Below are positions 474 through 22,273 of a stretch of DNA of 32,000 bases, one piece after another. The DNA is taken from positions 1 through 32,000 of the forward strand of contig JBHLKY010000011.1 of NCBI GenBank assembly GCA_048886185.1, in the 5' to 3' direction. The position numbers and the translations under genes are program-made. Under the pieces are notes generated by a model, which was given only the letters and a program-made list of their open reading frames with translations, did no database searches and had not been told where the DNA came from. The stretch's first letter is position 1. Each line of letters begins with the position of its first letter. Source of the DNA: Candidatus Hermodarchaeota archaeon (GTDB taxonomy: Archaea > Asgardarchaeota > Heimdallarchaeia > Hodarchaeales > Hodarchaeaceae).

Positions 474-1949
474 TTATGTTTTACCAGGAATGCCTGTTGT
501 TTTTTCTGGGATAATCTGTTGTTTATATTTATAGAACATTTCCGCTAGTTCTTGTACCTGTTGTAGTATTTCTTCTGAATTTAATTTCGTAAACTGATAA
601 TCATTTATTAACAATTGACCATTTGATATTACATACTGAATTTCGTTCCCATTTGCTGCCCAAATCAAGTTCTCTACTACATTATCTAAACGTGTCGGTA
701 TTAAATTTGGTTTTGAAAGATCGACGACAATAACATCTGCTAATTTTCCTGGTTCTAACGATCCTGTATTAAATCCTAAAATTTGTGCCGGAAGAATTGT
801 TATCCGCTCGATGACATCTTGAGCAGTCATTAATGTTGCATTTTGGTGGTAGGCTTTCTGGTATTGAGCAGCCACTCGAGCTGCATTAAGAATGTTCTGA
901 TTATCAGCACTTCCTGACCCATCTGTAGAAATTGCAAATATAATCCCTTTCTCCTTAAATTTTTGAAGAGGTGGCATCCCTGAACCAAGAATCGTGTTTG
1001 CAAGGGGATTATGAACAACCTTGGTTTGGGTTTTTGCTAAGATTGTGAGATCATTTTCAGTATTATGAACTTGGTGCCCAACAAATGTTTTTTCATCGAG
1101 AAAGTCAATGGAATGGCCATATTCAACTGGAGTCATTCCATACTCTTCCGTAAACCACTTCGTTGTCGCAGGTTCTTCGCTAGAGTGAATATGAATTAAA
1201 GTATCGTGAGAACGAGCCCAAGTTTTTAAAGCTTTAAGAAGGTCTGGACCATTAGAAAAGAACTGATCTGGACCAGGGATAATTTTAATATTCGCAGTAT
1301 TTTTATATTTCTCATACAATTCGTCCAAACGATTAACCGCTATATCAGTATTATCCAGTATTTTGGGATCATAATGCCGATCTTGAGAACCAATAGCGAT
1401 CATGATTTTAGTTCCAGCGATTTGGTTGGCTTTAACGAGTTCGTCTACATGATACTTGTTGAAATTGCAGTGATGAACTAATGCTGTTGTTATTCCATAC
1501 TGTAAGTCATCTACTCGTGCTTTCAGGTAAGTGATGAAGTATGGTGACTTTCCAAAATGTTTTGTTAATCGATCTTCTTCAGTATGTAAAAATCCTGTAT
1601 AAAGATTCACCACTGAATCTAACCAAGTAGTTAGGGGAACATCTTTGGCAATTCCAATGATTGGAGATTCATGATCATGTCCATGTGCTTTGACAAACCC
1701 TGGAAGTGTCACTCCATTTATCTGGGGTATTTTATCGGGTTCACTCACCCCTGTTGTTGGTGATCCAATGATTTCTAATTGTGTACCATAAGCATCCAAA
1801 ATTTGCTGGATTTTCTGACTATCAAATTGGCCAACCTCTTTGATGTATTTTCCTTCAATGAAGACATATCCATCATTAATACGAGTTTCCCGCCCTGATG
1901 TGTCCGAAAGAGGCAAGAGGAATCTTGTTCTGATCAACTTGTACTTCAT
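474..1949 (-). CDS. Metal-dependent amidohydrolase (Atz/Trz/MtaD-like deaminase family), substrate unknown
   Basis: PGFVKAHGHDHE (HxH), HIHSSE, HNPLAN, STDG and GSLEPGKLADVIVVD motifs. Confidence 0.85.
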   Translation of the reverse strand: MKYKLIRTRFLLPLSDTSGRETRINDGYVFIEGKYIKEVGQFDSQKIQQILDAYGTQLEIIGSPTTGVSEPDKIPQINGVTLPGFVKAHGHDHESPIIGIAKDVPLTTWLDSVVNLYTGFLHTEEDRLTKHFGKSPYFITYLKARVDDLQYGITTALVHHCNFNKYHVDELVKANQIAGTKIMIAIGSQDRHYDPKILDNTDIAVNRLDELYEKYKNTANIKIIPGPDQFFSNGPDLLKALKTWARSHDTLIHIHSSEEPATTKWFTEEYGMTPVEYGHSIDFLDEKTFVGHQVHNTENDLTILAKTQTKVVHNPLANTILGSGMPPLQKFKEKGIIFAISTDGSGSADNQNILNAARVAAQYQKAYHQNATLMTAQDVIERITILPAQILGFNTGSLEPGKLADVIVVDLSKPNLIPTRLDNVVENLIWAANGNEIQYVISNGQLLINDYQFTKLNSEEILQQVQELAEMFYKYKQQIIPEKTTGIPGKT

Positions 1950-2034
1950 TTTAGCAACAACTTCAATTAAGGGCTAATTTCAGAGATATTGAATGATATT
2001 CTTCAAATAAGAAACAGAATAAAAAAGGTTGAAA

Positions 2035-2053
2035 AAGTTAGACCTTCTAACTT
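2035..2053. promoter_or_regulatory. Perfect 7-5-7 inverted repeat AAGTTAG-acctt-CTAACTT in the divergent intergenic region; candidate operator
   Basis: Read directly from the sequence; lies between the divergent amidohydrolase and dihydropyrimidinase starts. Confidence 0.45.
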
Positions 2054-2115
2054 AGGAATCAGGTAAATATTTTGTGATTAAGTAGGGATTTTCTTATTTA
2101 TTAGGTGATTATGTA

Positions 2116-3483
2116 TTGGATCTCATTATTAAGAATGGAACCCTTGTAGACACCAATGGTCACTATAAAGCAAACTTAGCTATCGCTGAAGGGAAAATCA
2201 AAGCTATCTTTCTGGGAAACAAAAATTTTCATGCAGAAAAAGTTATCGACGCTAGTAAAAAGATGGTTTTTCCAGGGATAGTTGATACTCATGTCCATTT
2301 TCAACTCCAAGATTTGGGTCAGACCATTTCAACTGATTCTTTTGCTTCTGGAACTCAAGCTGCTGCTTGTGGAGGTGTGACCACGATCATTGACTTTGCG
2401 GATCAGATTAGAGGGGAATCTCCTCTCAAAAGCTTTTATGAGCGGAAGAAGAATACTGATCCACAAGTAGCCATTGATTATAGCCTACACATCTCAAAAA
2501 CAGACATTGATTTTCTAGACGAGATACCTACCCTCATATCTGAAGGGGTAACCAGTTTCAAATTTTTTACGACTTATAGTTGGCGAAATCTGGATCTTAA
2601 TGATGTAGAACTGTTAAAATTCTTTAGTGAGGTTAGGAAAAATCGGGGAATGGTTATCGGCCACTGTGAAAATGATAGTATAGTTGTCAACTACCGAAAT
2701 ACGCTTATTCAGGAGGGAAAAACTGATCCGATTTTTCATGCTCTTTCACGACCTCATATAGCAGAGGAAGAAGCCATCCAGAGAGCAATTCTCTATGCGA
2801 AAAAAACAGGTGTTAAGCTTCATTTGGCTCACATCTCAACGAAAGAAGGCTGTGATTTGTTATCACATGCGAAAAAGCAAGGTTTAAACATAACAGGAGA
2901 GACTTGCCCGCATTATTTGCTGCTGAACGAGAAAGCCTACAAGGGATCAGAGGGTTACTTGAATCTGATGTCACCACCTCTTCGTCATGCTAAGGATCAA
3001 CAAGCATTGTTTCACCAAGTACATTCAACAGTGGATCAAATAGTAACAGATCACTGTGTATTTTCCCGTGAGAGTAAGGGGAATGGGGAATTACCTTTTC
3101 ATCAAGTCTTAAATGGAATTCCTGGGATTGAAACCTCTTTACCTCTTATGCATAATTTTCTAATTAATAAACACAAATTAACCTATCCTCAGCTAGTGTC
3201 TCTAATGTCCACCCGACCGGCACAAATATTTGGCCTTTATCCTCAAAAAGGAAGTCTAATGGTTGGAACAGATGCTGATATTGTAGTTTTTGACCCACAA
3301 ATAGAAAAAACTATTGAACCAGAACTTCTTCATCATTCTATTGACTGGAATCCTTTTACGGGGATGAGAGTTGTCGGATGGCCAGTCTTGAGTGTCTTGC
3401 GTGGACATATCCTTCAAGAGAATGGGAGCTTTATTGGTCCCCAAAACGAGGGAAAATTTCTGAAATGTTCAACACATCATTAA
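2116..3483 (+). CDS. hydA: Dihydropyrimidinase / D-hydantoinase (HydA/HyuA family)
   Basis: DTHVHF, SFKFF (carbamylated Lys), HCEN, HLAHIS, ETCPHYL, MSPPLR, TDHC and GIPGIE motifs. TTG start preceded by AGGTGA. Confidence 0.9.
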   Translation: MDLIIKNGTLVDTNGHYKANLAIAEGKIKAIFLGNKNFHAEKVIDASKKMVFPGIVDTHVHFQLQDLGQTISTDSFASGTQAAACGGVTTIIDFADQIRGESPLKSFYERKKNTDPQVAIDYSLHISKTDIDFLDEIPTLISEGVTSFKFFTTYSWRNLDLNDVELLKFFSEVRKNRGMVIGHCENDSIVVNYRNTLIQEGKTDPIFHALSRPHIAEEEAIQRAILYAKKTGVKLHLAHISTKEGCDLLSHAKKQGLNITGETCPHYLLLNEKAYKGSEGYLNLMSPPLRHAKDQQALFHQVHSTVDQIVTDHCVFSRESKGNGELPFHQVLNGIPGIETSLPLMHNFLINKHKLTYPQLVSLMSTRPAQIFGLYPQKGSLMVGTDADIVVFDPQIEKTIEPELLHHSIDWNPFTGMRVVGWPVLSVLRGHILQENGSFIGPQNEGKFLKCSTHH

Positions 3484-3518
3484 CTACGAGGTTTTTTTTG
3501 AGAAAAGTTCTGAAGACA

Positions 3519-4367
3519 TCAAAGATAAACAGGTGAGACGATAAGCTCTGGTTTATGCCATTCATAATGAACTGTTGTAGGATGTTTTGTTTGAATCTGA
3601 TAATCAGATAGGGTAGGATTAAATTCTTCAATCTTTTGAATGACATAGTTAATACTATGATTTCCTAAGTTGTTTAGTGCCACATCAACTGTGATCCAAC
3701 TCATTTTAGGAGAAAGAATCTCTCCCCATGCATGGGCTTCAACCCTTGTGCCATTATCTCTAATATAGTAACCAGTTAATCGTTTACATGGAATCCCACG
3801 CATTCGGGCCAATGTTATGAAAAGATCTGTAAATTCATCACAATCACCAATTTCACCCATAAAAGCTTGAAAGGCTCCTAATCTTTCATCTTGATTTTCA
3901 GGATGTTTAATCTTCGTTCTTACATATCGAAATGCTGTTTGTACCCATTGAGAGAGATCATCAGTCTTAAACCATGCAGATTTGGTAATTTCTTGTATTG
4001 TGGGTGACTTTGTAGGCCAATAAATGGAGTTTTCTTGATATTTTGTCCTCAGAGCTTCAGGAATGTCTGATATTTTTCCCCAATCATCTTCTATGTTAAC
4101 AAAAAATGTCTTAGGATATATGGTGACAATTCTCTCTAAGGAAATTACCCCTTTAGTATGTACTTTCTGTTGAAATAAAAAAAAGGCATTTTCTCCTTTT
4201 GTTTTTACCTTACAAAGTTGAGGATATTTGTCAATATGTACAATTTGATGATAATTAGGATAGTGAAAGAACTTTAAACGAATTGATGGCGACCCAGCTT
4301 TTGCACGATATTGCAGCTGCTCCTGATGATGTATTTTCCACCCTTGGATTTGATGGGAAATGACTAT
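3519..4367 (-). CDS. Transglutaminase-like cysteine protease domain protein (~282 aa), probable non-canonical ATA start
   Basis: Catalytic triad GDCDEF / HAW / TVD. Manual translation shows the frame open for 169 codons upstream of the track's ATG at 3860, up to TGA at 4376-4374. GAGGTG lies 7 nt before the in-frame ATA at 4367. Confidence 0.8.
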   Translation of the reverse strand: MVISHQIQGWKIHHQEQLQYRAKAGSPSIRLKFFHYPNYHQIVHIDKYPQLCKVKTKGENAFFLFQQKVHTKGVISLERIVTIYPKTFFVNIEDDWGKISDIPEALRTKYQENSIYWPTKSPTIQEITKSAWFKTDDLSQWVQTAFRYVRTKIKHPENQDERLGAFQAFMGEIGDCDEFTDLFITLARMRGIPCKRLTGYYIRDNGTRVEAHAWGEILSPKMSWITVDVALNNLGNHSINYVIQKIEEFNPTLSDYQIQTKHPTTVHYEWHKPELIVSPVYL

Positions 4368-4443
4368 CTCTCGTCACCTCTTCTATTACTTATTAAATCA
4401 GAAAAGCTTTAATAAATCTCTTTAATCTCTTAAATAGAGTTGC

Positions 4444-4947
4444 TTGGGATTGGACGGCAAAAATCAGCTAAAAACCTCTCAAGGGGTATATGTTATAGTT
4501 CTTAAAATCGTCCATCCTTATGTAATAGATACAAAAAGATTTAAATGGATTTTAAAGGCAGGGTATTATCTTTACTTCGGATCTGCTAGAGGAAAAACCT
4601 CCACTTCCTTGGAAAATCGTTTAGCCCGTCATTTCAGATTTCAAAAGAAGATTTTCTGGCATATTGACTATATTACTTCTAATTCTGATACCAAAATAAT
4701 TAATGCCTTCTACTCCGTGAAACCTGATATTACAGAGTGTTCTGCTTTTCAAGAATTCAAACAAAACTTCCAAGATGTTATAATCATTCCAAACTTCGGA
4801 TCTACTGACTGTAAATCCTATTGTGGAGGGCATTTATTTTTTCTCTCACCCAATCAAGCTGTTCTACCTTCTCTCGGTGATTACTTCAGTTCAAAAAATT
4901 GGAAAGCAAGTACTAATGAGGGAAATTCGATATCATTTTTAAATTAA
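4444..4947 (+). CDS. GIY-YIG (Uri superfamily, DUF123-type) endonuclease
   Basis: GVYVIVL...GYYLYFGSARG...RLARH...KKIFWHIDY...EC...FGSTDC..C..HLF pattern typical of archaeal DUF123/COG1833. Confidence 0.85.
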   Translation: MGLDGKNQLKTSQGVYVIVLKIVHPYVIDTKRFKWILKAGYYLYFGSARGKTSTSLENRLARHFRFQKKIFWHIDYITSNSDTKIINAFYSVKPDITECSAFQEFKQNFQDVIIIPNFGSTDCKSYCGGHLFFLSPNQAVLPSLGDYFSSKNWKASTNEGNSISFLN

Positions 4948-5069
4948 TATTTGAAGTGTAACCTAATATACTTCTTGCTTATATTTCTTAGTATTTGACT
5001 AGCTCTTGAAACTAGTGTTTAAGAGAGTCTATATATCCTGTATTCAATCAAGTGAAGAGAGGTATAATC

Positions 5070-5924
5070 TTGCCATGGCCTTTCAAGAAAAAAAAAGAGA
5101 AGAAGAAAAAGATTTTACCGGAACCACCTTCGTTTTCTAATGAAGTTGACTCATCTATTTCAACACCCCCCATGGAATCTGTTCCTCCCTCAATCAGAGG
5201 ACCACCTGTAGAATCCTCAAGAGAACTATCCCCTCCTTCCATGGGAGGAGTGCCTGTTTATGAAGGGCCACCAAGAGACCCTTCTCCCCCCCCTATCACT
5301 GGACCACCTGTTTATGAGGGACCCCCAAGAGAACCATCTCCTCATCCTTCAGAACTTCCAACTCCCCCCCCTTTCATCAGAACAGATCCTTCAGATAAAC
5401 CGATAAAATCTCAGCAACCAGTTCAAGCACAAACTCCTATATTTAATGATGATCTAGCAGAAGAAATTCATGCTGAATTACGAAAAAGGGATTTTGGATC
5501 AGGAATGAAGAAAGCTCCTGAAAGACAAGCTGTATCTGTATCGACCGAAGACCTAGCTAAGCGTCATTTACGAGATGCAAAACAAGAGTATATTGCAGCG
5601 GCTGAGAAACACCTTGAATTAAACTTTTTTGACAATGCTGCGACTAACTTTGCATGCGCAGTACTTTGCGATTTAATGGCGGAGGGATGGCAAGTAGCTC
5701 GCGAATCAATGACGAAATTGACTTCTGTAGTACCATCTGCAGTGATAGAGAACAGCTTCTTTGATAGTGTTAGATTCCTGCTTGAAGCAATTCGGACAAA
5801 GAATTATACCTTTTTTACTCGTGCTGAACGAAGTCTTCAACAAAGTATGCAACATCTCTACCCTGAAGATGCTGCGATGGTTCAAAAAGCGATAAAAATC
5901 GCACAAGAGCACTTTGGATATTGA
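5070..5924 (+). CDS. Proline-rich protein: polybasic N-terminus, Pro-rich repeats, WH2-like motif, helical SNAP/TPR-like C-terminal domain
   Basis: Long ORF. TTG at 5070 lies 6 nt after GAGGT (the track start GTG 5052 is also possible). Domain labels are by-eye similarities. Confidence 0.7.
   Translation: MPWPFKKKKEKKKKILPEPPSFSNEVDSSISTPPMESVPPSIRGPPVESSRELSPPSMGGVPVYEGPPRDPSPPPITGPPVYEGPPREPSPHPSELPTPPPFIRTDPSDKPIKSQQPVQAQTPIFNDDLAEEIHAELRKRDFGSGMKKAPERQAVSVSTEDLAKRHLRDAKQEYIAAAEKHLELNFFDNAATNFACAVLCDLMAEGWQVARESMTKLTSVVPSAVIENSFFDSVRFLLEAIRTKNYTFFTRAERSLQQSMQHLYPEDAAMVQKAIKIAQEHFGY
5199..5354 (+). repeat. Three imperfect 16-18 aa proline-rich coding repeats (GPPVES--SRELSPPSMG / GVPVYEGPPRDPSPPPIT / GPPVYEGPPREPSPHPSE)
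   Basis: DNA cctgtttatgaagggccaccaagaga at 5253 recurs as cctgtttatgagggacccccaagaga at 5307 (54-nt period). Confidence 0.8.
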
Positions 5925-5970
5925 ACGGGGCCATTTCCCTCCTTTCCCCTCATAATTCTTATCTGAGGAA

Positions 5971-6381
5971 TTATTTGGGATTTTTCTGATATTTCCTTAA
6001 CAATTCTTTACATTCTTCATTGTCTTGATATTCTAGGATGACTCCATGAGATTTCAAGAAATCTTCGGCGCCCATTATCGTTTCATTATCTGCAATGACT
6101 ACTCTAGGAATTTGGAAATAAACAATGGTTCCAGAGCACATCTGACAAGGTGAGAGAGTTGTATACAAGACTGATCTTTGATAATCTTCAGGAAGCAGTA
6201 TCCCTGCGTTCTCTATGGCATCCATTTCCGCGTGCAAGATCACACTTGCTTTTTGTTGGCGCTGATTTCTCCCTCGACCGATTATTTTTCCATCAAGAAC
6301 TAATACTGATCCAATTGGGATCCCATTTTCTTCAAAACCATGTTTAGCTTCTTGAACTGCAACTTGCATAAACTCATCCAT
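5971..6381 (-). CDS. Zinc-dependent nucleobase deaminase, fungal Fcy1-type cytosine deaminase-like
   Basis: GIPIGSVLV, HAEMDAIENAG, LYTTLSPCQMC (HxE...PCxxC) motifs. Confidence 0.85.
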   Translation of the reverse strand: MDEFMQVAVQEAKHGFEENGIPIGSVLVLDGKIIGRGRNQRQQKASVILHAEMDAIENAGILLPEDYQRSVLYTTLSPCQMCSGTIVYFQIPRVVIADNETIMGAEDFLKSHGVILEYQDNEECKELLRKYQKNPK

Positions 6382-6410
6382 TTAGTGTTCACCAAAAAAG
6401 ATACTGGGTT

Positions 6411-7463
6411 TTAGTAAATCCCACCCATGGTTAACGCCATTATAGCTTTTTGCACATGAAGTCGATTCTCAGCCACATCGTAGATACAGGATCGCGGGCC
6501 TGAGGCGACTTCATCAGTCACTTCGTGTCCCCGATCAATGGGCATCGGATGAGTGAAGATTGCATTATCAGTTAACGCCATTTTTTGAGAATCACAGATC
6601 CAAGTGGGATAGTTGAGCGCTTTATCGATTTCCTGTTGTTTTAGAAAGTCCCCATCTAGATAAGCTTCAGGACTCATCCAATGGCGAGAATAGACGACAT
6701 GGGCTCCCTCATACCCTTTGGTGAGATGGTTTGTAACTTCAAAATGAGTATTATATTCATTGCAATTCTCTTCAGTCCGCTTTAAAACCTGAGAATCCAA
6801 ATCATATCCTTCAGGAGAAGCAACGGTGACATCCATACCATAACGTGAGCCAATCAACATGGCTTCTTGAACAGAGCACCATGAACGAGCCAACGCGCCA
6901 TGACCCCAAGTAACCAATAATTTTTTCCCTTTTAAGACTCGCCAATCAGGGGGAAAGCCAATCCCTTTGTTAAACCATTCCGACCAACCCATGACATCTG
7001 CCAAACCCTGACAAGGGTGGTATTTATCATGAGCCATTGAAATGATGGGTATAGTGGACCATTTCGCGTATTCTCGAAGGAGGGCCTCACCCTCGCCATA
7101 TTCACCTACTTTATCTTCAAGTATTCGAATACCAAGACCGTGAGCATACCGAGACATTACTTGTGCAGCATCTTCAACGGTCTCTCCTGCAGTAGTTGCG
7201 GTCTTTAAGCGCATAGCTTTAGGTTCGAGAAATTGGGCATGGCCACCCAATTCTGTAGCAGCTACTTCAAAACTTTGTCTGGTACGAACACTTGGATTAT
7301 AAAAAAACATAAAGAATGTTTTATGTTGTAACAAATTTATATAGCGACGGGAAAACCGTTCCCGCTTCATTCTACCTGCTAGATCTAAAACTAAGTCTAA
7401 TTCGTACTTCTCCCAATCTTGTGTGCAAATCAGATCTCGTCCATATAAATCAGAAAATTCCAT
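6411..7463 (-). CDS. Carbamoyltransferase (ATC/OTC superfamily, YgeW/AOTC-like), paralogue 1, substrate unknown
   Basis: FYNPSVRT, HPCQ, HPMP, AENRLH motifs; no OTC DxxxSMG loop. Confidence 0.85.
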   Translation of the reverse strand: MEFSDLYGRDLICTQDWEKYELDLVLDLAGRMKRERFSRRYINLLQHKTFFMFFYNPSVRTRQSFEVAATELGGHAQFLEPKAMRLKTATTAGETVEDAAQVMSRYAHGLGIRILEDKVGEYGEGEALLREYAKWSTIPIISMAHDKYHPCQGLADVMGWSEWFNKGIGFPPDWRVLKGKKLLVTWGHGALARSWCSVQEAMLIGSRYGMDVTVASPEGYDLDSQVLKRTEENCNEYNTHFEVTNHLTKGYEGAHVVYSRHWMSPEAYLDGDFLKQQEIDKALNYPTWICDSQKMALTDNAIFTHPMPIDRGHEVTDEVASGPRSCIYDVAENRLHVQKAIMALTMGGIY

Positions 7464-7476
7464 ATTTATTCACCTT

Positions 7477-8463: not shown

Positions 8464-8676
8464 CGTAATTCCTCAATCTAACGTAGCATTTACATTTGAT
8501 AATGAAATTGAAAAACTTACTTTATTGAACATATTCAGTTAGAAAGAATCTAAACAGCTTTTTCTTGGTATTAATATTCTTTGACCAAACACTATTAAAC
8601 ACACACATAATATTTGTAAATCTCTCATTTTGAAGATTTTGAAATAATTTTATCCATCTAGGTAGGTAATATAACC

Positions 8677-9702: not shown

Positions 9703-9740
9703 TTCACAGATTTTCATTAGTAATAGAGGGTGATTCTGCC

Positions 9741-9757
9741 AGGGGTGACCCCTTTTT
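9741..9757 (+). terminator. Short GC hairpin plus T-tract downstream of the DUF2804 gene
   Basis: AGGGG-TGA-CCCCT followed by TTTT. Confidence 0.35.
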
Positions 9758-9954
9758 CATTTCTAGTACCAACATGAATATCTGGTGTTCCCAGATGAGA
9801 GTAGTAAGATTGCCATAAAGATCATTCTTTTATTGCAGTGATATTTATATTAACAGGTAGGTTTCAGCACAAAGAAAATTCCTCCTCTAGCAGGTGTTTT
9901 TTTAAAGTATTTTATAGATAAGTGGAAACTCTTTAAGAAGTAAGAGATGATGTC

Positions 9955-12289: not shown

Positions 12290-12556
12290 GATAATCATTC
12301 CTTTCATTAAAATGCGATAAAACTCTGAAGGAGGATTTTTTCTATTCAAAAAATGTCTAGGGGGTAGAGTTAACTCCCAGGAATATAGTTCAAATTTCTT
12401 TGTGAAAACTCGTGTCTTGTCTTAATAACCCAGAAAACGGATAATCACATAAAAGACTCTGTTATGAAAGTATCTGAATAATCTATAAATTCCGACTAAT
12501 TGACATTAAAATCCTTATAAAAATAGTTTCGTTTGAATAAGTCCAATGATGGTCTT

Positions 12557-13345: not shown

Positions 13346-13363
13346 TAGCCAAGCTTCCTTTTC

Positions 13364-13395
13364 TCTACTAACCCTCGGTAGAAGAACTTTATAAA
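13364..13395. promoter_or_regulatory. Divergent promoter: inverted repeat TCTAC-N9-GTAGA (13364-13382) and palindromic TATA box TTTATAAA (13388-13395)
   Basis: Read directly between the divergent trmB and arsM starts. Confidence 0.5.
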
Positions 13396-13431
13396 CATTG
13401 TCGTATAGGCATGATATGGGTGTATAGTGTA

Positions 13432-14205: not shown

Positions 14206-14252
14206 TTTGATATATTTGAATGATGATTTTTCTTGATAATTGTAAGAAATCG

Positions 14253-15674
14253 TCATCCTCCTTTAAGTTTCTGCGAAACCCTCAGATATGTCTGAAAAGA
14301 TTTCACAGTCAGATTTGTCTTTAAGCTAGGCTTAGGATTATCTTCAAGGTTCAAGGTATATCCTCCCTTGTCTAGAAGGTCATTAAACGCATCTTGGGCC
14401 ATCTTGAGGATTTTAATTTCATCCAAAGTTTCGACCTGCCTATTTTTCATGATTATTTGGCCATCAACTATGACAGTATCCACATCTGACCCAAAAGCAG
14501 AGTATACTAAATGAGAGGGACAATTATGAAATGGTGTGAGGTGAGGTTTCTTAAAGTCTAATATAATGATGTCAGCTTTTTTCCCTACTTCAAGAGAGCC
14601 AATTTCTCTCTCTAACCCAAGACTTTTAGCTCCTAGAATTGTGGCCATCCGAATAATCTTCTGAGCAGGAAGTACGGTCGAGTTCTTACTTTTCATCTTA
14701 TGAAGAAATGCAGCCGTTCGCATTTCTTCTATCATATCGAGATTATTGTTACTTCCACATCCATCGGTTCCAATCCCAACAATAACGCTATTTTTCATCA
14801 GTTCAGGTATCGGAGCAACCTCATTCCCATATTTCATCATTGGAGAAGGACAGTGAGACACTGTGGTGTTTGTTTTCTTCATGATTTGCATATCCTCCTT
14901 TGTGACAAATACACAATGTGCTGCTAATACATCCTTCTCCAAGACTCCCAAATTATGTAAATGTTCAATGGATGTGCTTCCATGCTTCTCCTTCGCCATC
15001 CTCGGTTCGTTCGGCCCTTCAGCGACATGGATATGTAAACCGACATTAATTTCATTAGCTGCTTCTCGTGTTTGTTGAAGTAAAGCTGGTGAACATGTGT
15101 ATATTGAATGAGGACCTAACTTACAGGATATTCGTCCATCGACAGAATCATTCCATTCTTGAGCAAAAGCCACGCTCTCTCTGAGCTCTCGTTCTCCCTT
15201 TTCCTGGTCATTTAATTCTAATATCCCCTGGGCAAGATTCGCACGCATCCCAGCTTCTTTGACCGCACCCGCTACGCGATCCATATGCCAATACTGATCA
15301 GCAAAGCAGGTTGTTCCTGTTTTTATCATCTCCAAGCAGCCTAGAAGGGCCCCAACATAACAAGTATCAGCAGTGATATTTTTTTCAATCGACCAGATTA
15401 TTGGTAACCAGTTTATTCCAGGAACGTCGTCAGCAACACCTCTGAATAAAGTCATTGATAAGTGTGTATGAGTATTGACAAGTCCTGGCATCAAAACCAT
15501 TCCTTTTGCGTCAATCTCTCTATCAGCTGAATATTTCCGCATTTGGTTTATTGATCCTAAATCAATGATTTTATTCCCTTCAATAACTAAGGTTCCCTCT
15601 GAAATTACCTCATTCTTCTGGTTAACTGTGATGATTACTGCGTTTTTTATTAGTAGATCAGCCAAAAAAACCAC
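14253..15674 (-). CDS. MtaD/DadD-like 5'-methylthioadenosine/S-adenosylhomocysteine deaminase family amidohydrolase
   Basis: PGLVNTHTHLSMTLFRG, EMIKTGTTCFAD, GPHSIYTCS, HIHVAE, AHCV, GTDG.GSNNNLDM motifs. True start may be TTG 15665. Confidence 0.85.
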   Translation of the reverse strand: MVFLADLLIKNAVIITVNQKNEVISEGTLVIEGNKIIDLGSINQMRKYSADREIDAKGMVLMPGLVNTHTHLSMTLFRGVADDVPGINWLPIIWSIEKNITADTCYVGALLGCLEMIKTGTTCFADQYWHMDRVAGAVKEAGMRANLAQGILELNDQEKGERELRESVAFAQEWNDSVDGRISCKLGPHSIYTCSPALLQQTREAANEINVGLHIHVAEGPNEPRMAKEKHGSTSIEHLHNLGVLEKDVLAAHCVFVTKEDMQIMKKTNTTVSHCPSPMMKYGNEVAPIPELMKNSVIVGIGTDGCGSNNNLDMIEEMRTAAFLHKMKSKNSTVLPAQKIIRMATILGAKSLGLEREIGSLEVGKKADIIILDFKKPHLTPFHNCPSHLVYSAFGSDVDTVIVDGQIIMKNRQVETLDEIKILKMAQDAFNDLLDKGGYTLNLEDNPKPSLKTNLTVKSFQTYLRVSQKLKGG

Positions 15675-15796
15675 CTCAACACTTTTGTGAATGAAACAGT
15701 GTACTTTGTATTGTAGATAAATTATTCATATGTGTTTTTTGGATAGAATTACAATAGGAAATTAATTGAGGAAGTTCATATAACCAAGAGTTATCA

Positions 15797-16087
15797 ATGA
15801 AATCAAAAAAAACATCAACTCTCGTTGATGAGAAGAGAACATCCCTTAAACTATCACCTGTAACTAAGATACTTATTTTAGCATTAGTGAAAAAACATCC
15901 TGAGTCCTCTCGTTATGATTTAATGCAAAAAAAGAAGATTTTTTCCTACCATCTTTTGAGACTGAATTTAATCCTCTATCAGGCAGTGATTAACCTTAAG
16001 AGTCCCTCTAATGAACTAAAGTTCAAGATTTTCAATATAACTTCATTGTTTATGGTATTGCTTTCTTCTGGTTATTTGTGGGAGTAG
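15797..16087 (+). CDS. Hypothetical protein, doubtful; N-terminus weakly wHTH-like
   Basis: Only ORF in this gap. ILILALVKKHPESSRYDL faintly recalls PadR-like helix 1-2. Confidence 0.25.
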   Translation: MKSKKTSTLVDEKRTSLKLSPVTKILILALVKKHPESSRYDLMQKKKIFSYHLLRLNLILYQAVINLKSPSNELKFKIFNITSLFMVLLSSGYLWE

Positions 16088-16366
16088 ACATTTCCTCATT
16101 TTTCTAAAAATACTGTTATTATGAAACCTTATTTTATTATAAAGGGGTATTTATCATTATATGATTCTAATAGGATTTCATACCTATGATATCTCTTAAA
16201 TCTTCAAAAATACTCCCAATTATCTTTTTTGCCACTTTCCATTATTATAAAAATGAAAGTGTAATAAACATTAATAAAATTGTAAGATTCTTAAATCATC
16301 AAATCAAACTTTAGAGCTTATCAATCAGAATTAAAATAAATTTTATGTCTGTTATCTGGTGATTTC

Positions 16367-19300
16367 ATGAATATTTCAGTAATTAAGGATAGAGATAGCT
16401 TCGAGGGTATAATTCGTCCAATTAATACAAGTACTGACTCAAAAAAACTTGCTGATTTTTTTAATGCGATTGATGATCTATGGCCAGGTACTTGGACTCA
16501 AGGAATCAAGTATGATGAAAAACGTGCACGAGAGTTCATTGAAAAAATGAAAGCTCTTGAGTGGTTCGTTGCTTTTAACCCTCAAGAACGGTTAGTTGGG
16601 CTGTGTTCAGTTCATAAACGTATGGAAGAGCCCAATGTTTCATACATTGGTATTTTGGGTGCTCATCCTGAAGTACTAGGAAAAAAGTATGGTAAGCATC
16701 TACTCCTCACTGCAGTTGATTTTAGCGTGAAAAATGGTGATGTACGACAAGATCTAAACACTTGGCCATCAAATATGAAAGCTGTTCCCCTTTACAAGAA
16801 GATTGGCCTTCAATGGGTTCCCGACACCTCAGTATACATGCAGAACTACATTCCTGTGATCTTACAAAACTCATTCTGTAAACCATTTTTTGATAAACAT
16901 CCCCATTGGTACCTTGATCAGAAGCGGGAAATTATACAAGCTCCTGATGAACAAACCCTAGGAAAAATGAAAGTTTTTTATTATCGGTTTGAAAATGAGC
17001 AAGACTTTCTTGAAGTAATTATTGATCGCTATAGCCGATCTATCACGGGTGTTACTAGAAGTATTAATGGAGAATTAATTGGGATAACCTTACAACAGAA
17101 AGATCATGATGTCTTTGCTGGAATTGCCCAATCTATCTCTTTACTCATAAGGAATGAGTCCAATAAAGAGCTATCTGTTATTGTATCTATGGAGGGGTCT
17201 AAGGAAGTCAGTGTAAAAACTATTCAAGACATTCTGACAGTTTCCAATGGAAGCAAAATCCTTGAAAATACTTACGTCGTTGACGATATAACTTCTGACA
17301 CTGATATTCAAAGAAAAACTCCCAGTATCAAAAGCCGGATTATTATTAATGGAGAAGTCCTTACTCTAGAAGCAGGTATGAGAGTTCGTCAGGTTATTGA
17401 TATCGAGATATCTGATCATGTTTGGTGGAGACCTTCTGGAAAACAAGATATGTCACTTCACATCCAAAATAGGTCTGAAAAATCCATTGAAGGAGACTTG
17501 ACATTATGGTCCACTAATGAAATTAATATTCTTTCCCCTGTTATTCCAATTAAATTAGCTCCTGAAGAGAATATCGGTGTCATTGCTCAAATAGAAATTC
17601 CCTCGAATGATGATGACATTTTTACAAGTCTATATTGCCAAGCTAAGATGGAAACTACTAAGAGTAGAGTATTTGAACTCCCAATTTTCCTTTCTAATAA
17701 CCAAGGATTAGCAGCTGGTATTCAAGAGGACAAGAAGTGTGTTATCATCCAAAATCAATATATTCGAGGTGTTATTAAATTAGAGGGCGCGAAAGCGGAC
17801 TTTCGTACTCATGATGATACTTTAATGGGAATAGGCGTTCGTACACTTGATTATGGGCCTCCATTTGGTTTTAGTGAATTTAATCAAGTTGAATTTACAC
17901 CTAAAATAATAGAAAAAAGAAATTCTATTCAGATTAAACTTTCAAAGAGAGGACAATCGAAAAGAGAGTTATTATTTCATCGGGTTTTTGAATTAAGAGC
18001 AGGAGATCCTCATTTTGCTACATGGACGGAAGTTCAAAATTTAGGAACTATGGATGACCAAATAACTATGATCATAGAACCGCATTTCACCCATGGTATA
18101 AATATGCCTCTTGGGGAAACATATTTCGTTTTTGATAATCAGCTCATGTGTGGACCTGCTTTTTTCTGGCCTGCTGGAAAAGGAGACTTACCTGAAGGAA
18201 CTGAAAGATATGAACCTTGGATTTGTATACAAGTAGGAGATGTTGGATACTACCACATCTATGAAACACACAATACTAAAGCGGATCCTAGTCGTAGTAA
18301 ATTGTCCTCACTCGAGAAAAAGATCCATATCCCTGCTCTTTCCTCATCTAGTGGACCAAAGAGTTGGATTGGATGTGGCAACATAGAATGGAAGAGAGTT
18401 CGTGAACTAGCATATTATTTAAGTAAAAAACAGGTATTGTCTCCACTTCAGCAAAAAATTGAACCAAAGTCTTATCTTAAAATCGAAATCCCAAGAGAAA
18501 AATTGTTGATTGGAGAAAAATTTTCAGAAATTAAAATTACCCTGAAATCAATCCGCTTAATGCCTTTGAATGGTCGTTTAATCATGGAAGCACCTGAAGG
18601 ATGGACAATTACTCCCAGTGAATTCGAAATTACTAATTTAAACCTAAATAATCCGCAAGAGCATGAATGCAGATTACAATTACCAAATGACACCACCTTT
18701 GGGACTTACAAACTAAAATTTGTTATTGAGAGCAACGAAAAGAGAGAAACCAAGTATATTCGATTTTTAGTCTTTGATAGCACAAAAAAACCAGAAATAC
18801 TTGATCTTCCAAAGGAATCAGATAAGAATTTGGTTCTAGTTAAAAATGATAATCTTGAAGTTACCAGTTCAGGTGACTTTGCAGCTTGTTTAACTCAAAT
18901 AAGATATAATGGCCAAAATTATTTACTTTCTAATTTTCCAAATTACTGTCCATCTATTTTCTTTTCAAAAGATCCTGGTGGTATGGTTAATTCGATTTTT
19001 CAGAGTGAAAGTGATGATCTAGATGATCCATCCTATTTGAAAGAGAAATATTTGGTTAAGAAAATTGAATCCAATCAGTGGTCTGGAGTTGAATATTCGA
19101 CAACTCTTCATGAAATAAAGTCATTGAAGGGATTGGTTGTTAAAATCGCATACGAGATATTAGGAGGAGCCTCTAGTTTAATTCGTGTTCGAACAACAAT
19201 TCATAATCCATCTTCTACTACGTTTCAGTTCATATCACTTAGTTTATTAAGTCCAGGGGCTGATGGAAGTATAGAAAATATGGTTTCGAGATTCTCTATA

Positions 19301-19591
19301 GGCACTGATGTTACTTTTCAAGTTTCAAGGGATAATCCAGTACCTATTTTTGGTGCTGGGCCAAATAAGATGGCATATTTAACTGTAGCAAAGGATAACA
19401 ACTCCCTTTCCATCATTAAAACATCTAAAAGAACTAAACTTGTTCCACTTGATGCTGGAAAAATGATCCTTGGAGCTGGATTTCTCACTAACTGGAGCTT
19501 ACAGCCCAACCAAACTGATGAAATTCTCTACTTTGTTTCGTTAAACAGTAAAGAAGAATTTCTAAAGGATATTTCCCATATTTTTTCGTGA
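16367..19591 (+). CDS. Large (1074 aa) protein with N-terminal GNAT domain and multiple beta-sandwich domains
   Basis: GAHPEVLGKKYGKHLL and TWPSNMKAVPLYKKIG GNAT motifs; APEGWTITP Ig-like segment; no signal peptide; GGTGA SD. Confidence 0.8.
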   Translation: MNISVIKDRDSFEGIIRPINTSTDSKKLADFFNAIDDLWPGTWTQGIKYDEKRAREFIEKMKALEWFVAFNPQERLVGLCSVHKRMEEPNVSYIGILGAHPEVLGKKYGKHLLLTAVDFSVKNGDVRQDLNTWPSNMKAVPLYKKIGLQWVPDTSVYMQNYIPVILQNSFCKPFFDKHPHWYLDQKREIIQAPDEQTLGKMKVFYYRFENEQDFLEVIIDRYSRSITGVTRSINGELIGITLQQKDHDVFAGIAQSISLLIRNESNKELSVIVSMEGSKEVSVKTIQDILTVSNGSKILENTYVVDDITSDTDIQRKTPSIKSRIIINGEVLTLEAGMRVRQVIDIEISDHVWWRPSGKQDMSLHIQNRSEKSIEGDLTLWSTNEINILSPVIPIKLAPEENIGVIAQIEIPSNDDDIFTSLYCQAKMETTKSRVFELPIFLSNNQGLAAGIQEDKKCVIIQNQYIRGVIKLEGAKADFRTHDDTLMGIGVRTLDYGPPFGFSEFNQVEFTPKIIEKRNSIQIKLSKRGQSKRELLFHRVFELRAGDPHFATWTEVQNLGTMDDQITMIIEPHFTHGINMPLGETYFVFDNQLMCGPAFFWPAGKGDLPEGTERYEPWICIQVGDVGYYHIYETHNTKADPSRSKLSSLEKKIHIPALSSSSGPKSWIGCGNIEWKRVRELAYYLSKKQVLSPLQQKIEPKSYLKIEIPREKLLIGEKFSEIKITLKSIRLMPLNGRLIMEAPEGWTITPSEFEITNLNLNNPQEHECRLQLPNDTTFGTYKLKFVIESNEKRETKYIRFLVFDSTKKPEILDLPKESDKNLVLVKNDNLEVTSSGDFAACLTQIRYNGQNYLLSNFPNYCPSIFFSKDPGGMVNSIFQSESDDLDDPSYLKEKYLVKKIESNQWSGVEYSTTLHEIKSLKGLVVKIAYEILGGASSLIRVRTTIHNPSSTTFQFISLSLLSPGADGSIENMVSRFSIGTDVTFQVSRDNPVPIFGAGPNKMAYLTVAKDNNSLSIIKTSKRTKLVPLDAGKMILGAGFLTNWSLQPNQTDEILYFVSLNSKEEFLKDISHIFS

Positions 19592-19622
19592 GTACTAAGT
19601 GAAAAACTCTCAACTTGTTCTT

Positions 19623-20879
19623 TCACTTATTATTAAATATGAATTGAAGTTCAGAGATTCGAGGTAAAACTGGAGGCGGTAATGAGATCTCCTGCTGTAA
19701 AACTTTAGGATCTTTAAATCCAACTCCTGTAATTGGTATAATAACTCGATCAGACTTATCAATTTCACCTCTTTCCACTAAAATTTCAAGACCAGCAACT
19801 CCTGCAGTTCCTGAGGGTTCTCCAAATATCCCCTCATGTTGGGCTAACCATTTTTGAGTTCTGAGGATAGCTTCCTCCGATACAGTAACCGCGGTGCCAG
19901 AACTGTCGTAAATAGCAGTAAGTGCGGAGTCAGCATCCCAAGGATGAGGATCAGCGAGTCCCGCTGCTACAGTGTGTGGAGTGTGTTCCCAATCACGAAA
20001 CTCTAATGCTGGTGTTCTTTTTAAAACTCCATCGACAATCGGTGCACATTCTTCAGGTTGAACTGCAACATGATGTGGAATAGAAGTAATAAAATCCAGT
20101 TCCTCGAATTCTTTGAATCCTTTATAGGTTCCCGCTAATAATCCACCACTACCAGTTGCAAGAAGTACCCAGTCAGGTGGTTCCCAACTACATTGTTCAC
20201 AAAGCTCGAACGCAAGGCTTTTTGTCCCCTCAAACTGAAAAGGATTGAAAGGGCCAAATGATGGAGAGGGCATCCAGCCAAATCGCTCATAAGACTTTCG
20301 GAAGAGTGTAACTGATGAATCTTGCCCCTCTAATTCCTCCTTTACCCTAATAACTATAGCTCCCAAATATGCTAGTTGCGATAATTTCCCCTCGGATGTG
20401 TGTTCTGGTACAAAGACAACTACTTTTTTTCCTGCTCTCGCGCCATATGTTGCTAGTGCTGCAGCAGCATTCCCTGAGGAAGCAGCTGTAAAGACTTCAG
20501 CTTTCAGTTCTACTCCTTTTGATACCCCTATAGAAATTGGTCTATCTTTAAAACTTCCTGAAGGATTACCAGTTTCAATTTTGAAGAATAAATTCTTCAT
20601 TCCAAATTTTTCTTCTCCTATACGACTAGAAGGGATAAGAGGAGTTCCACCACATCCAAGATTAACTATATATTTATTATTCCTTATCGGAAAAAACTCA
20701 CGATATCGCCAATGAGTGAATGGTCTTTTTCCCAATACTTTTTTAGTAATTTTTTCTTTCAATTTGTCATATTTGAAGTTTATGCGTAAGCGGAACCCAC
20801 AACTACAACTTTGTGTCAAAAAAAGTTTTTCTTCCACCGATTTGCCACATTTTGGGCATTTTAGATATGGATCGTACAC
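19623..20879 (-). CDS. Threonine-synthase-like fold-type II PLP enzyme, probably non-canonical substrate
   Basis: N-terminal CxxC..CxC, GGTPLI, NPSGSFKDR (PLP Lys), SSGNAA, TGSGG, EPSG, ITGVGFKD motifs. Confidence 0.85.
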   Translation of the reverse strand: MYDPYLKCPKCGKSVEEKLFLTQSCSCGFRLRINFKYDKLKEKITKKVLGKRPFTHWRYREFFPIRNNKYIVNLGCGGTPLIPSSRIGEEKFGMKNLFFKIETGNPSGSFKDRPISIGVSKGVELKAEVFTAASSGNAAAALATYGARAGKKVVVFVPEHTSEGKLSQLAYLGAIVIRVKEELEGQDSSVTLFRKSYERFGWMPSPSFGPFNPFQFEGTKSLAFELCEQCSWEPPDWVLLATGSGGLLAGTYKGFKEFEELDFITSIPHHVAVQPEECAPIVDGVLKRTPALEFRDWEHTPHTVAAGLADPHPWDADSALTAIYDSSGTAVTVSEEAILRTQKWLAQHEGIFGEPSGTAGVAGLEILVERGEIDKSDRVIIPITGVGFKDPKVLQQEISLPPPVLPRISELQFIFNNK

Positions 20880-20917
20880 AATTGCAACCGCACTGCTTTA
20901 ATAAAATTGTAATTTTC

Positions 20918-22273
20918 TTATATTTGTCTTGCGATTCTGGGAGTAAGATCTAATCGTTCCCAAAGAGAAACCGCAGAGTCCGTTGACTGTTGGCTAACAA
21001 TAATCGCATCAAGAGATTTATGCACGCCATTTTTTACTATAGTTTTCCCATTTACTATAACATATTTGATATCTCGCCGAGAAAATGATCCATACACAAG
21101 GTGACTGTAAACATTATCCTCATGAATGGGTGTTGGTAAAAATGAGGTATCCATAATAGTGAAATCAGCAGCTTTATTCTTTTCAATTGATCCAATATGA
21201 TCCTTCAAGCCAATAGCTTGTGCGGCATTTATTGTTATCATTTGTACCACTTGAAGTGGAGTTGGTAATTGGCTAGGATTACGATGGTTCAGCTTGTGCA
21301 TGAGATAAGCAGTCCTCATATTCTCGATCGCATCATAAATAAATCCATCATTACCAACACCAATGTTTATCCCCTTTTGCAACATTTCTGGAAGTTGAGC
21401 TACTCCAACTGCGTTTAATTCATTACTTTTTGGATTATGAGCTATATTAGTTCGGGTTTGGGCTATTAGGTCGATCTCATGCTCGTTAATGTGAACAGCG
21501 TGGGCTAATGCGGTTCGTGATCCAAGGAAGCCCTCATCATAAAGTCGTTCTACTGTTCGCTTTCCATATTTCTCAAGATTATGATGAAGATCAGCTAATC
21601 CTTCTGCTGTATGAACAGTCTTAAATGAATTAGTTTCAGTGGCAAATTCTACCGTTTTGTTAATTAATTCATCTGAAACCGTAAAGGAGGCATGTAAACA
21701 GTAGATCCCATGCACCAATGTTTTCTCTGGGTCATTCTGCGAAATGAATCTTCGATTTTCCTCTAATCCTCTTATTCCTTCTTCATAGCTTCGACGCTCT
21801 GTCACTTCAAAGCATATCGCTCCTCTAATCCCCACATCTTGTGTAGCTTTCGAAATACGATCTAGTGAACCCTCAATAGAATTTGGGCCTGAATATGTAT
21901 CTAAATAAGCAGTGATACCATTTAATGCTAATTCATTCACAGCGAACAACGCAGATGTATATGCATCCTCTAAAGTGAGAGCTTCGTCCATTGTCCACCA
22001 AATTCTTTGTAAATTCTGAGTAAAATCTGTTGGTGGATCTATATGGAGAGGTGCACCTCTTAATAATGCAGAATAGAGATGAGTATGAGCACAAATAAAG
22101 CCAGGAAACACAACGAGGTTAGAACAATCGATTACAGTATCAGCTTTGTTGGGTATATTTTTACCAACCTGAATGATCTTACCGTCCTCCACTAAAATAT
22201 TTCCTTGCGAAATAACTTCATTGTTTGCATTCATGGTCACAATTAAGCCATTCTTAAGTAATAAACTTTCCAT
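20918..22273 (-). CDS. ssnA: SsnA-like amidohydrolase
   Basis: PGFICAHTHLYSALLRG, PTDF..NL..IWW..D.AL, IEGSL, CFEVTER, EEN.RF, HASFTV, HTAEG, HNPKSN, GNDG match the SsnA pattern as remembered. Confidence 0.75.
   Translation of the reverse strand: MESLLLKNGLIVTMNANNEVISQGNILVEDGKIIQVGKNIPNKADTVIDCSNLVVFPGFICAHTHLYSALLRGAPLHIDPPTDFTQNLQRIWWTMDEALTLEDAYTSALFAVNELALNGITAYLDTYSGPNSIEGSLDRISKATQDVGIRGAICFEVTERRSYEEGIRGLEENRRFISQNDPEKTLVHGIYCLHASFTVSDELINKTVEFATETNSFKTVHTAEGLADLHHNLEKYGKRTVERLYDEGFLGSRTALAHAVHINEHEIDLIAQTRTNIAHNPKSNELNAVGVAQLPEMLQKGINIGVGNDGFIYDAIENMRTAYLMHKLNHRNPSQLPTPLQVVQMITINAAQAIGLKDHIGSIEKNKAADFTIMDTSFLPTPIHEDNVYSHLVYGSFSRRDIKYVIVNGKTIVKNGVHKSLDAIIVSQQSTDSAVSLWERLDLTPRIARQI

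Follow-up and report, generated by a model that had tools for sequence, protein, structure and literature searches.

The Hodarchaeales, a group of Asgard archaea, figure in current debate as the archaea most closely related to eukaryotes. Here we analyse a 32,000-nucleotide stretch of a Hodarchaeales genome (positions 1–32000 of contig C11, hereafter the window) that carries a group of genes for the putative breakdown of nucleobases and of the ureides formed from them. The assembly, labelled G000, comprises 4.84 Mb in 75 contigs and is 96% complete. The original prediction had named nine genes within 22 kb of this stretch and had read them as a fermentation in which ring-opened purines or pyrimidines yield carbamoyl phosphate and then ATP. 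Pfam and NCBIfam scans recovered all nine at their positions, among them a carbamate kinase (CK), two carbamoyltransferases (CT1 and CT2), a hydantoinase, an SsnA-like amidohydrolase and a pyridoxal phosphate (PLP) enzyme; Table 1 lists them together with two genes from other contigs that bear on the same system.

Table 1. Genes of the proposed system in G000: product, position (in the window, or with contig name where the gene lies elsewhere), strand, and family or profile.
divergent chlorohydrolase/deaminase-type amidohydrolase (AH1)	474-1949	-	PF01979
dihydropyrimidinase/D-hydantoinase, HyuA-like	2116-3483	+	TIGR02033
CDA-fold deaminase, yeast cytosine deaminase type	5971-6381	-	PF00383
carbamoyltransferase CT1	6411-7463	-	PF02729 + PF00185
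carbamate kinase (CK)	7477-8463	-	TIGR00746
carbamoyltransferase CT2	11225-12289, open reading frame reaching 12349	-	PF02729 + PF00185
MtaD/DadD-like deaminase	14253-15674	-	PRK06038, below cut-off
threonine-synthase-like fold-type II PLP enzyme	19623-20879	-	NF006050, below cut-off
SsnA-like amidohydrolase	20918-22273	-	NF005540 best NCBIfam match, below cut-off
CysK/CBS-like PLP enzyme of 489 amino acids (PALP489)	C4:125543-127009		
luciferase-family protein	C20:32831-33856		PF00296

The known pathway with which these genes invite comparison is that of Escherichia coli and Clostridium. There, in a sequence established biochemically, urate is reduced to 2,8-dioxopurine by XdhD; the ring is reduced and opened by YgfK (or UacX) together with SsnA, and HyuA then forms 2,3-diureidopropionate. 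One ureido group is phosphorolysed by YgeW, the carbamoyl phosphate serves YqeA for ATP formation, and YgeY and YgeX complete the conversion to pyruvate, the gene set being xdhD-ygfM, ygfK, ssnA, hyuA, ygeW, yqeA, ygeY and ygeX (Li et al. 2025, PMC12507026; Liu et al. 2025, bioRxiv 10.1101/2025.04.24.650524).

The nine genes do not form the single 22-kb unit that had been envisaged, because they belong to five or more transcription units, encoded on both strands and with unrelated genes between them. At least nine such genes are interleaved, again on both strands, including those for a transglutaminase, a DUF123 protein, a Pro-rich open reading frame, DUF2804, GNAT and TrmB proteins, a methyltransferase and a 1074-residue GNAT protein. 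Only two groups within the window are operon-like: CK, CT1 and the cytosine deaminase, in this order and with gaps of 13 and 29 nt, and the pair formed by the SsnA-like gene and the threonine-synthase-like (ThrC-like) gene, with a gap of 38 nt. The grouping as such exceeds chance, given the low copy numbers of the genes (CK and the SsnA-like gene occur once each in the genome, and the carbamoyltransferase fold four times, as CT1, CT2, ornithine transcarbamylase (OTC) on C8 and PyrB on C14) and a probability, roughly estimated, of about 1e-8 that five given single-copy genes fall within 22 kb of 4.84 Mb under uniform placement. Synteny of the full 22 kb is kept only in the close relatives G010 and G007 (~85% protein identity), and other Heimdallarchaeia families have CK without the other window genes around it; we therefore set whole-window synteny aside as evidence and used the recurrence of sub-modules instead. 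A regulatory 10-mer (with at most one mismatch) was sought upstream of four of the units (1950–2115, 8464–8676, 12290–12556 and 22274–22539), and none was common to all four, the mean in shuffled controls being 0.5. Seven sequencing runs match window positions 5900–12400, from sediment and estuary metagenomes plus one run with no organism on record; none is recorded as RNA, six being DNA and one of unrecorded kind.

Both transferases are members of the transcarbamylase superfamily, as judged by their SxRT, HPxQ and HxLP-type motifs and their two domains. CT1 carries SVRT, HPCQ and HPMP, the last a variant of HxLP, while CT2 carries SLRT, HPCQ and HCLP and has a long 120s loop; the start of CT2 is most likely at 12289, since its homologues are 354 residues long. 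One of the two had been taken for a YgeW-like enzyme, a designation that profile scores, phylogeny and solved structures all contradict, for CT1 as well as for CT2. On the YgeW profiles NF005538 and TIGR03316 (cut-offs 453 and 500 bits), CT1 reaches only 98 and 97.5 bits and CT2 only 157 and 149 bits, and in the alignment both are without the YgeW insertions (the extended 240s loop) and without its C-terminal tail and extra helices. A maximum-likelihood tree, built without reference sequences for AOTC (acetylornithine transcarbamylase), SOTC, PTC and UGTC, puts CT1 in one well-supported clade and CT2 in another, both of which include Asgard as well as bacterial proteins; E. coli YgeW groups instead with the transferases of two other Heimdallarchaeia genomes, G028 and G036. 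Among solved structures, Xanthomonas AOTC and Pyrococcus OTC come closest and YgeW does not: AOTC is the best match of CT2, and for CT1 it ties with the P. furiosus OTC. The AOTC and OTC profiles also top the lists for both proteins, at 226 (CT1) and 270 bits (CT2) against an AOTC cut-off of 288, and at 193.5 and 222 bits against an OTC cut-off (TIGR00658) of 281. CT1 lies below every NCBIfam cut-off, and both transferases lie below every equivalog cut-off. Neither is an ordinary OTC, an identity excluded by the lack of the DxxxSMG ornithine loop, by the scores just given, and by the presence on C8 of a true OTC that scores 425 bits against the same cut-off of 281.

The two enzymes have different relatives outside the Asgard archaea. 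The nearest for CT2, and its partners in the tree, are Caldisericia and Bipolaricaulota proteins with 56–59% identity. Anaerolineae proteins share 75–79% identity with CT1, but the CK next to it is only 44–48% identical to its Anaerolineae counterparts, and this disparity suggests a fairly recent horizontal transfer of CT1, in either direction, between Chloroflexota and this Hodarchaeales genus.

CK scores 373 bits on TIGR00746 (cut-off 358) and is 41% identical to E. coli YqeA. The link between CK and CT1 holds in all 15 genomes of the same genus that have both genes on one contig, where they adjoin each other in every case. Beside the CK operon, at 5052–5924, lies an open reading frame of 290 residues without a Pfam or NCBIfam match, which has counterparts with 37–58% identity in sister species. 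On the other side of CT2, at 12557–14205, a TrmB regulator and an S-adenosylmethionine (SAM) methyltransferase are encoded head-to-head. In two more distant members of the genus, G001 and G016, this pair directly adjoins CK, with neither CT1 nor CT2 present; therefore, the transferases and the DUF2804 and GNAT genes have been inserted or lost between them.

The two proposed ring-opening enzymes were compared with their E. coli counterparts. The hydantoinase reaches 410 bits on TIGR02033 (cut-off 393) and is the top match of E. coli HyuA in the genome, with 37% identity over 463 aligned positions; it is distinct from the allantoinase-like gene of this archaeon, which lies on C7. Homologues of the hydantoinase gene stand beside SsnA in G028, beside CK and two carbamoyltransferases in G036, and 3.5 kb from a CT1-CK-CT2 array in G021, a genome of the same genus. 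The SsnA-like protein is the top match of E. coli SsnA in the whole genome, and scores 379 bits on NF005540 (cut-off 444) and 357 bits on TIGR03314 (cut-off 455.5), the next-best family being of the MtaD type at 256. It keeps the motifs HxHxYSxLxRG, WWxxDxAL and NPxSNxxNAVG and is without IDHHAS, having DTYSGP where SsnA has DHHASP. Its neighbours in G000 are the ThrC-like gene and PLD genes, with no dearomatising reductase alongside; its homologues elsewhere adjoin either a luciferase-type reductase gene (Thorarchaeota) or a DHO_dh+Fer4/PreA-type one (a separate Hodarchaeota lineage, and G002 in the genus of G000).

Of the remaining amidohydrolases and deaminases, the cytosine deaminase is the one that shares an operon with CK and CT1. 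Its closest solved relatives are the yeast cytosine deaminases (108 bits, E 3e-30, against 70 bits for TadA), and a copy with 87% identity occupies the same third and last position of the CK-CT1 operon in G010; the location suggests that pyrimidine bases feed into the pathway or are handled alongside it. No such support emerged for the other two members that had been proposed. The MtaD-like protein, at 535 bits on PRK06038 (cut-off 609), falls in the deaminase clade of the tree and has three further paralogues in the genome, and its gene is missing at this position in G010, so that it probably lies outside the system. The membership of AH1 is uncertain: its best NCBIfam matches, of about 215 bits, are far below the cut-offs, it forms a long branch inside the deaminase clade, and its head-to-head pairing with the hydantoinase gene was seen only in close relatives.

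A fold-type II PLP enzyme in the window had been put forward as the counterpart of YgeX, and by descent it is not. It scores 18.6 bits on the YgeX model TIGR03528 (cut-off 532), for which the best value in the genome is 44.6, and a tblastn search with E. coli YgeX gave no match. By its sequence it is instead a paralogue of threonine synthase and not threonine synthase itself: it scores 291 bits on NF006050 (cut-off 303) and 173 on TIGR00260, just above the cut-off of 167, and the true ThrC, encoded on C5, has 541 bits. The arginines of both the NPxRxEG and the IRIG-type motif, which are kept in the true ThrC, are replaced in the window enzyme, and the ThrC-like proteins linked to gene clusters in Bipolaricaulia, Chloroflexota and G028 have lost the same two residues. 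These arginines are the presumed phosphate-binding residues of the O-phosphohomoserine site, as in Thermus ThrC. Another candidate for a terminal lyase is PALP489 on C4. No NCBIfam model matches it at the threshold used; it shows 58–66% identity across Bipolaricaulia, Caldisericia, Chloroflexota and Heimdallarchaeia, where it occurs inside carbamoyltransferase-CK operons, and it was found in 75 of the 201 Asgard genomes sampled. Within the window, the ThrC-like gene is separated from the methyltransferase gene by that for the 1074-residue protein (16367–19591), in which only an N-terminal GNAT domain is recognised and which is 84% identical in G010.

The molybdenum- and flavin-dependent entry enzymes and YgeY had been noted as missing from the window; of these, molybdenum hydroxylases and YgeY are encoded elsewhere in the genome. 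C7 carries two sets of xanthine dehydrogenase (Xdh) genes, with up to 39% identity to E. coli XdhD, and a true YgeY with 498 bits (cut-off 321) lies on C5. The inventory of the urate pathway comprises Xdh, the SsnA-like and HyuA-like enzymes, CT1, CT2, CK and YgeY; for the reductase and the terminal lyase there are only candidates that are not orthologous, namely the luciferase-type protein on C20, and PALP489 and the ThrC-like enzyme. Two copies of CofE and a CofD are present in G000, which makes the use of F420 by the luciferase-type protein plausible. In this genome, the surroundings of the genes for PALP489 and YgeY are uninformative.

What ties these families together is their recurrent co-localisation in other genomes. 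In Bipolaricaulia, nine co-directional genes encode a binding protein, a luciferase-type protein, SsnA, a ThrC-like protein, an M20 hydrolase, PALP488, CK, a CT2-like and a CT1-like transferase, with F420 genes alongside. Every enzyme family of this operon has a homologue in G000, five of them in the window, and the identities reach 60% for the luciferase-type protein, 66% for PALP488, 52% for CK, 57% for the CT2-like and 45% for the CT1-like enzyme; the Bipolaricaulia SsnA is equally close, at 36%, to the window protein and to E. coli SsnA. A Caldisericia operon has the order CT2-like, PALP489, CK, CT1-like, and in Chloroflexota (Anaerolineae) a YgeY-like M20 gene is followed by CT1 (77% and 75% identical) and CK, with ThrC-like and PALP486 genes nearby. 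Among archaea, a Thorarchaeota contig combines a nucleoside-type ABC binding protein, an adenine deaminase, a luciferase-type protein and an SsnA-like protein. A contig of another Hodarchaeota lineage (L044, positions 1–17332) carries genes for a Fer4 protein, an aldehyde:ferredoxin oxidoreductase (AFOR), a DHO_dh/Fer4 protein, an SsnA-like protein (51%), an amidohydrolase, and CT2-like (54%) and CT1-like (50%) transferases. The same contig holds in all two tungsten-type AFORs, Fer4 proteins and two ThiS-like genes, a setting that could provide a ferredoxin-linked entry module in place of Xdh.

A compact arrangement is found in G028, a complete Heimdallarchaeia genome of another family, in which a urate-pathway-like cluster occupies 17 kb (C1:2928000–2945999 of that genome). 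It encodes a fused Fe-S/Mo XdhD-like protein of 881 residues, a YgeY (60% identical to that of E. coli), a transferase, PALP487, a hydantoinase, an SsnA of the core clade, a DHO_dh+Fer4 reductase, a ThrC-like protein, and FeS/FAD and Mo subunits of Xdh; a PQQ/beta-propeller protein is encoded there as well. In G036, also of the Heimdallarchaeia, Xdh, CK, two carbamoyltransferases and a hydantoinase are together. Within the genus of G000, CT1, CK and CT2 are contiguous in G021; in G020, an SsnA-like gene, a small open reading frame, CT2, an MFS transporter gene, CK and CT1 follow each other within 6.4 kb; CT2 lies about 1 kb from the SsnA-like gene in both G013 and G020; and in sister species the distance between the SsnA-like gene and transferase or CK genes is 1–2 kb. 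The luciferase-type gene in turn lies about 2 kb from that for PALP489 in G002, G013 and G020. CT1, CT2 and the SsnA-like gene are each present in 16 of the 21 genomes of the genus and are all three absent from G001 and G016. Of the 16 genomes with an SsnA-like gene, 13 also have the luciferase-type gene, which was found in none of the other five. Since related genomes are not independent samples, we read these counts as consistent with a functional link and not as statistics. The co-occurrence of YgeY was discounted as evidence, as it does not track CT1 or the SsnA-like gene in the genus (G001 and G016 carry YgeY).

Because the same families co-localise independently in distant bacteria and archaea, from Bipolaricaulia, Caldisericia and Chloroflexota to another Hodarchaeota lineage and another Heimdallarchaeia family, the best reading of the window is a catabolic route to carbamoyl phosphate and ATP. 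This part of the original prediction is supported by comparison, and no outcome named beforehand as refuting it was encountered; homology of the transferases to YgeW, the YgeX counterpart and the single unit are not supported. In more specific terms, we regard it as fairly probable that several separate transcription units in the window belong to an archaeal form of the reductive urate (2,8-dioxopurine-type) pathway for degrading purines without oxygen, one that employs a luciferase-family, probably F420-linked, reductase and two carbamoyltransferases. The flow that we propose is based, at every step, on homology and gene neighbourhoods. Xdh-type molybdenum enzymes would oxidise or reduce purine bases to the entry purine, and the luciferase-type protein is the candidate for the reductive dearomatisation of the ring. 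The SsnA-like enzyme would then open the first ring, and the HyuA-like hydantoinase the second (a hydantoin or dihydropyrimidine ring), giving a diureido acid such as 2,3-diureidopropionate. CT2 and CT1 would each phosphorolyse one ureido group to carbamoyl phosphate, from which CK, using ADP, would produce ATP, CO2 and NH3, with up to two ATP per purine. A PLP enzyme could then turn the leftover diamino acid into pyruvate and ammonia, a step for which PALP489 and the ThrC paralogue are the candidates, and YgeY may hydrolyse one ureido group as an alternative. The minimal module of Caldisericia, with its two transferases, CK and PALP489, fits such a scheme, in which a diureido acid would give two carbamoyl phosphates and a diamino acid to be deaminated by PALP489.

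A number of observations weigh against this interpretation. By the comparisons described above, CT1 and CT2 are not YgeW orthologues, and the core SsnA clade (E. coli, G028 and Bipolaricaulia, support 100/99) excludes the SsnA-like protein of the window, which belongs to an Asgard group placed, without resolution, somewhere between SsnA and the deaminases. The genome yielded no dearomatising reductase of the YgfK or the PreA/UacX type: in tblastn, E. coli YgfK returned only partial, GltD-like matches, and PreA/UacX-type queries from G028, G002 and L044 matched only PyrD, which leaves the luciferase-type enzyme as the sole candidate, on another contig and in a neighbourhood that is uninformative in G000. 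The ThrC-like protein is only 32–34% identical to its cluster-linked relatives elsewhere, and its gene does not adjoin the SsnA-like gene in G002, G004, G013 or G020. PALP489 and YgeY occur also in genomes without a CT1 or SsnA-like match at the thresholds used. Nucleobase transporters of the NCS2 (PF00860) and NCS1 (PF02133) families were not found in the 96%-complete genome, and the parts of the pathway are scattered over four contigs, those in the window being split by unrelated genes. Finally, CK is not specific to the proposed route. Near-universal in the class, it occurs in 38 of the 41 Heimdallarchaeia genomes, among them G001 and G016, from which CT1, CT2 and the SsnA-like gene are absent.

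This last point leads to a different reading, which we consider unlikely: that the genes serve the supply of carbamoyl phosphate and not fermentation. The large subunit of carbamoyl-phosphate synthetase (CarB, TIGR01369) was not found in G000, and the sole match in 40 relatives, that of G007, was partial and did not reach the cut-off, whereas all 14 control genomes matched. PyrB, PyrD and PyrC are encoded in G000 on C14, and the true OTC on C8. Carbamoyl phosphate is required by both PyrB and OTC, and with CarB not found and CK near-universal, CK must also have a general and possibly anabolic role. In this reading it would mainly make carbamoyl phosphate from carbamate for PyrB and OTC, as has been proposed for Pyrococcus, or CT1 and CT2 would release it from scavenged ureides as anabolic or salvage enzymes; the class may thus obtain carbamoyl phosphate from CK or from catabolic transferases. 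In two sister species (G013, contig C73, and G002, contig C93), CT2 directly adjoins a pyrB-pyrI-pyrD(-pyrK)-pyrC block, an arrangement suggestive of a connection of pyrimidine synthesis with the carbamoyl phosphate from ureides. Yet SsnA, M20 hydrolase and reductase genes repeatedly accompany the CT1-CK and CT2-PALP489-CK-CT1 arrays, a combination that is sensible only for breakdown, and the published YgeW/YqeA pair is catabolic. The two roles are also compatible, because carbamoyl phosphate from ureides may serve biosynthesis as well as ATP formation.

Two further readings change the substrate or dispense with a common pathway. The reductive degradation of pyrimidines would run from cytosine to uracil, through reduction and dihydropyrimidinase to N-carbamoyl-beta-alanine, which CT1 would phosphorolyse to beta-alanine and to carbamoyl phosphate for CK. 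The yeast-type cytosine deaminase in the CK-CT1 operon speaks for it, as do the dihydropyrimidinase scoring above its cut-off 3 kb away, which is also found near CT1-CK-CT2 in G021, the DHO_dh+Fer4 gene beside a second hydantoinase and the SsnA-like gene in G002, and the mention, as a hypothetical enzyme, of a beta-alanine transcarbamylase with a catabolic role (Shi et al. 2015, PMC4581275). We hold it to be improbable, because the PreA-type queries returned neither a dihydropyrimidine dehydrogenase nor a PreA/PreT-type reductase in G000, a ring that yields one ureido group needs neither two transferases nor an SsnA-type enzyme, the Chloroflexota homologues of CT1 are accompanied, as genes of the purine route are, by YgeY-like and ThrC-like genes, and no deaminase was seen in the operon of G007. 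Very unlikely, in our judgement, is a chance neighbourhood of housekeeping deaminases, a spare threonine synthase, and an arginine-type transferase pair with CK from an arginine/citrulline or acetylornithine route. The AOTC and OTC profiles that top both transferases, the many unrelated genes between the named ones and the full synteny in close relatives only would fit it. So would a locus at C10:110850–113940, where a 309-residue arginine-deiminase-like protein is encoded beside an arginase-like ureohydrolase and a polysaccharide-deacetylase-like gene; the deiminase-like gene, the true OTC and CK could form an arginine-to-ATP route. The transferases of the window, however, lack the ornithine loop and stay below all equivalog cut-offs in a genome with its own OTC, the ThrC paralogue has lost the presumed phosphate-binding arginines, the same families gather repeatedly in distant bacteria and archaea, and chance clustering of these single-copy genes has a very low probability.

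Reductive purine degradation, the reading that we prefer, would share with the E. coli/Clostridium route the use of a molybdenum hydroxylase, dearomatisation, ring opening of the SsnA/HyuA type, phosphorolysis by a carbamoyltransferase and ATP formation by CK. The HyuA-like protein, CK and YgeY of G000 score above curated cut-offs, and the best Xdh has appreciable identity to XdhD, as given above. It differs in that YgfK, UacX and YgeX are missing, the candidate reductase is of the luciferase family, a ThrC paralogue and PALP489 are the candidate lyases, the two transferases lie outside the YgeW clade and the SsnA-like protein outside the core clade, the genes are dispersed over four contigs, and the host is an archaeon. 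A second related system is a variant of the SsnA cluster with a luciferase-family gene in Chloroflexota, to which a single remark was devoted on the basis of a neighbourhood network and in which twin transferases, the 489-residue PLP enzyme and ThrC-like genes are not mentioned (Li et al. 2025, PMC12507026). G000 resembles it in the combination of an SsnA-type enzyme with a PF00296 protein in place of YgfK/UacX, in the closeness of CT1 to the Anaerolineae proteins and in the relation to M20-carbamoyltransferase-CK arrays, and departs from it in that the luciferase-type gene is not beside the SsnA-like gene.

The transferases themselves are reminiscent of the Xanthomonas AOTC (PDB 3kzc) and the knotted group to which it belongs (PMC4581275), with SxRT and HPxQ motifs, a long 120s loop and no SMG loop. 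They differ from AOTC in their scores below its cut-off, in the HPMP of CT1 in place of HxLP, in having CK, SsnA-type and PLP enzymes as partners and not arginine biosynthesis, and in a host with its own OTC. The pairing of a phosphorolytic carbamoyltransferase with CK for substrate-level ATP formation, as proposed here, is also that of the arginine and agmatine deiminase pathways; unlike these, the operon holds no deiminase, agmatine deiminase (PF04371) was not found in the 96%-complete genome, and the transferases are without ornithine and putrescine motifs. The route had been thought to be undescribed for Asgard archaea, and no published description for any archaeon was found in the literature searched; the two papers on the pathway make no mention of archaea (PMC12507026; 10.1101/2025.04.24.650524). 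The dispersed occurrence in Asgard archaea is thus new, and what we describe appears to be a variant of a known pathway that is seemingly unpublished for archaea. This variant, with twin transferases and a luciferase-type gene, recurs across Bipolaricaulota, Caldisericota, Chloroflexota and Asgard archaea, together with the strongly conserved 489-residue PLP enzyme.

Two preprints of 2025 bear on the physiology of the Hodarchaeales. One reports that these archaea have no de novo synthesis of purines and suggests for them a lifestyle based on scavenged DNA, and the other, on the first Hodarchaeales cultures, reads xanthine dehydrogenase as an antioxidant device that makes urate. As a tentative extension of our reading, which we think possible and do not put higher than that, the Hodarchaeales would ferment the purines of scavenged nucleic acids by an F420-linked route in which two transferases give two ATP per purine, Xdh providing the entry enzymes of an energy pathway; the carbamoyl phosphate would also feed the synthesis of pyrimidines and arginine, since carbamoyl-phosphate synthetase would be missing from the entire class. 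Now that cultures exist, the feeding of labelled purines and enzyme assays are feasible. If true, a route from purines to ATP would account for the fate of the bases of scavenged nucleic acids, Xdh would gain a catabolic role, and a substrate-level source of ATP would be added to models of Asgard physiology.

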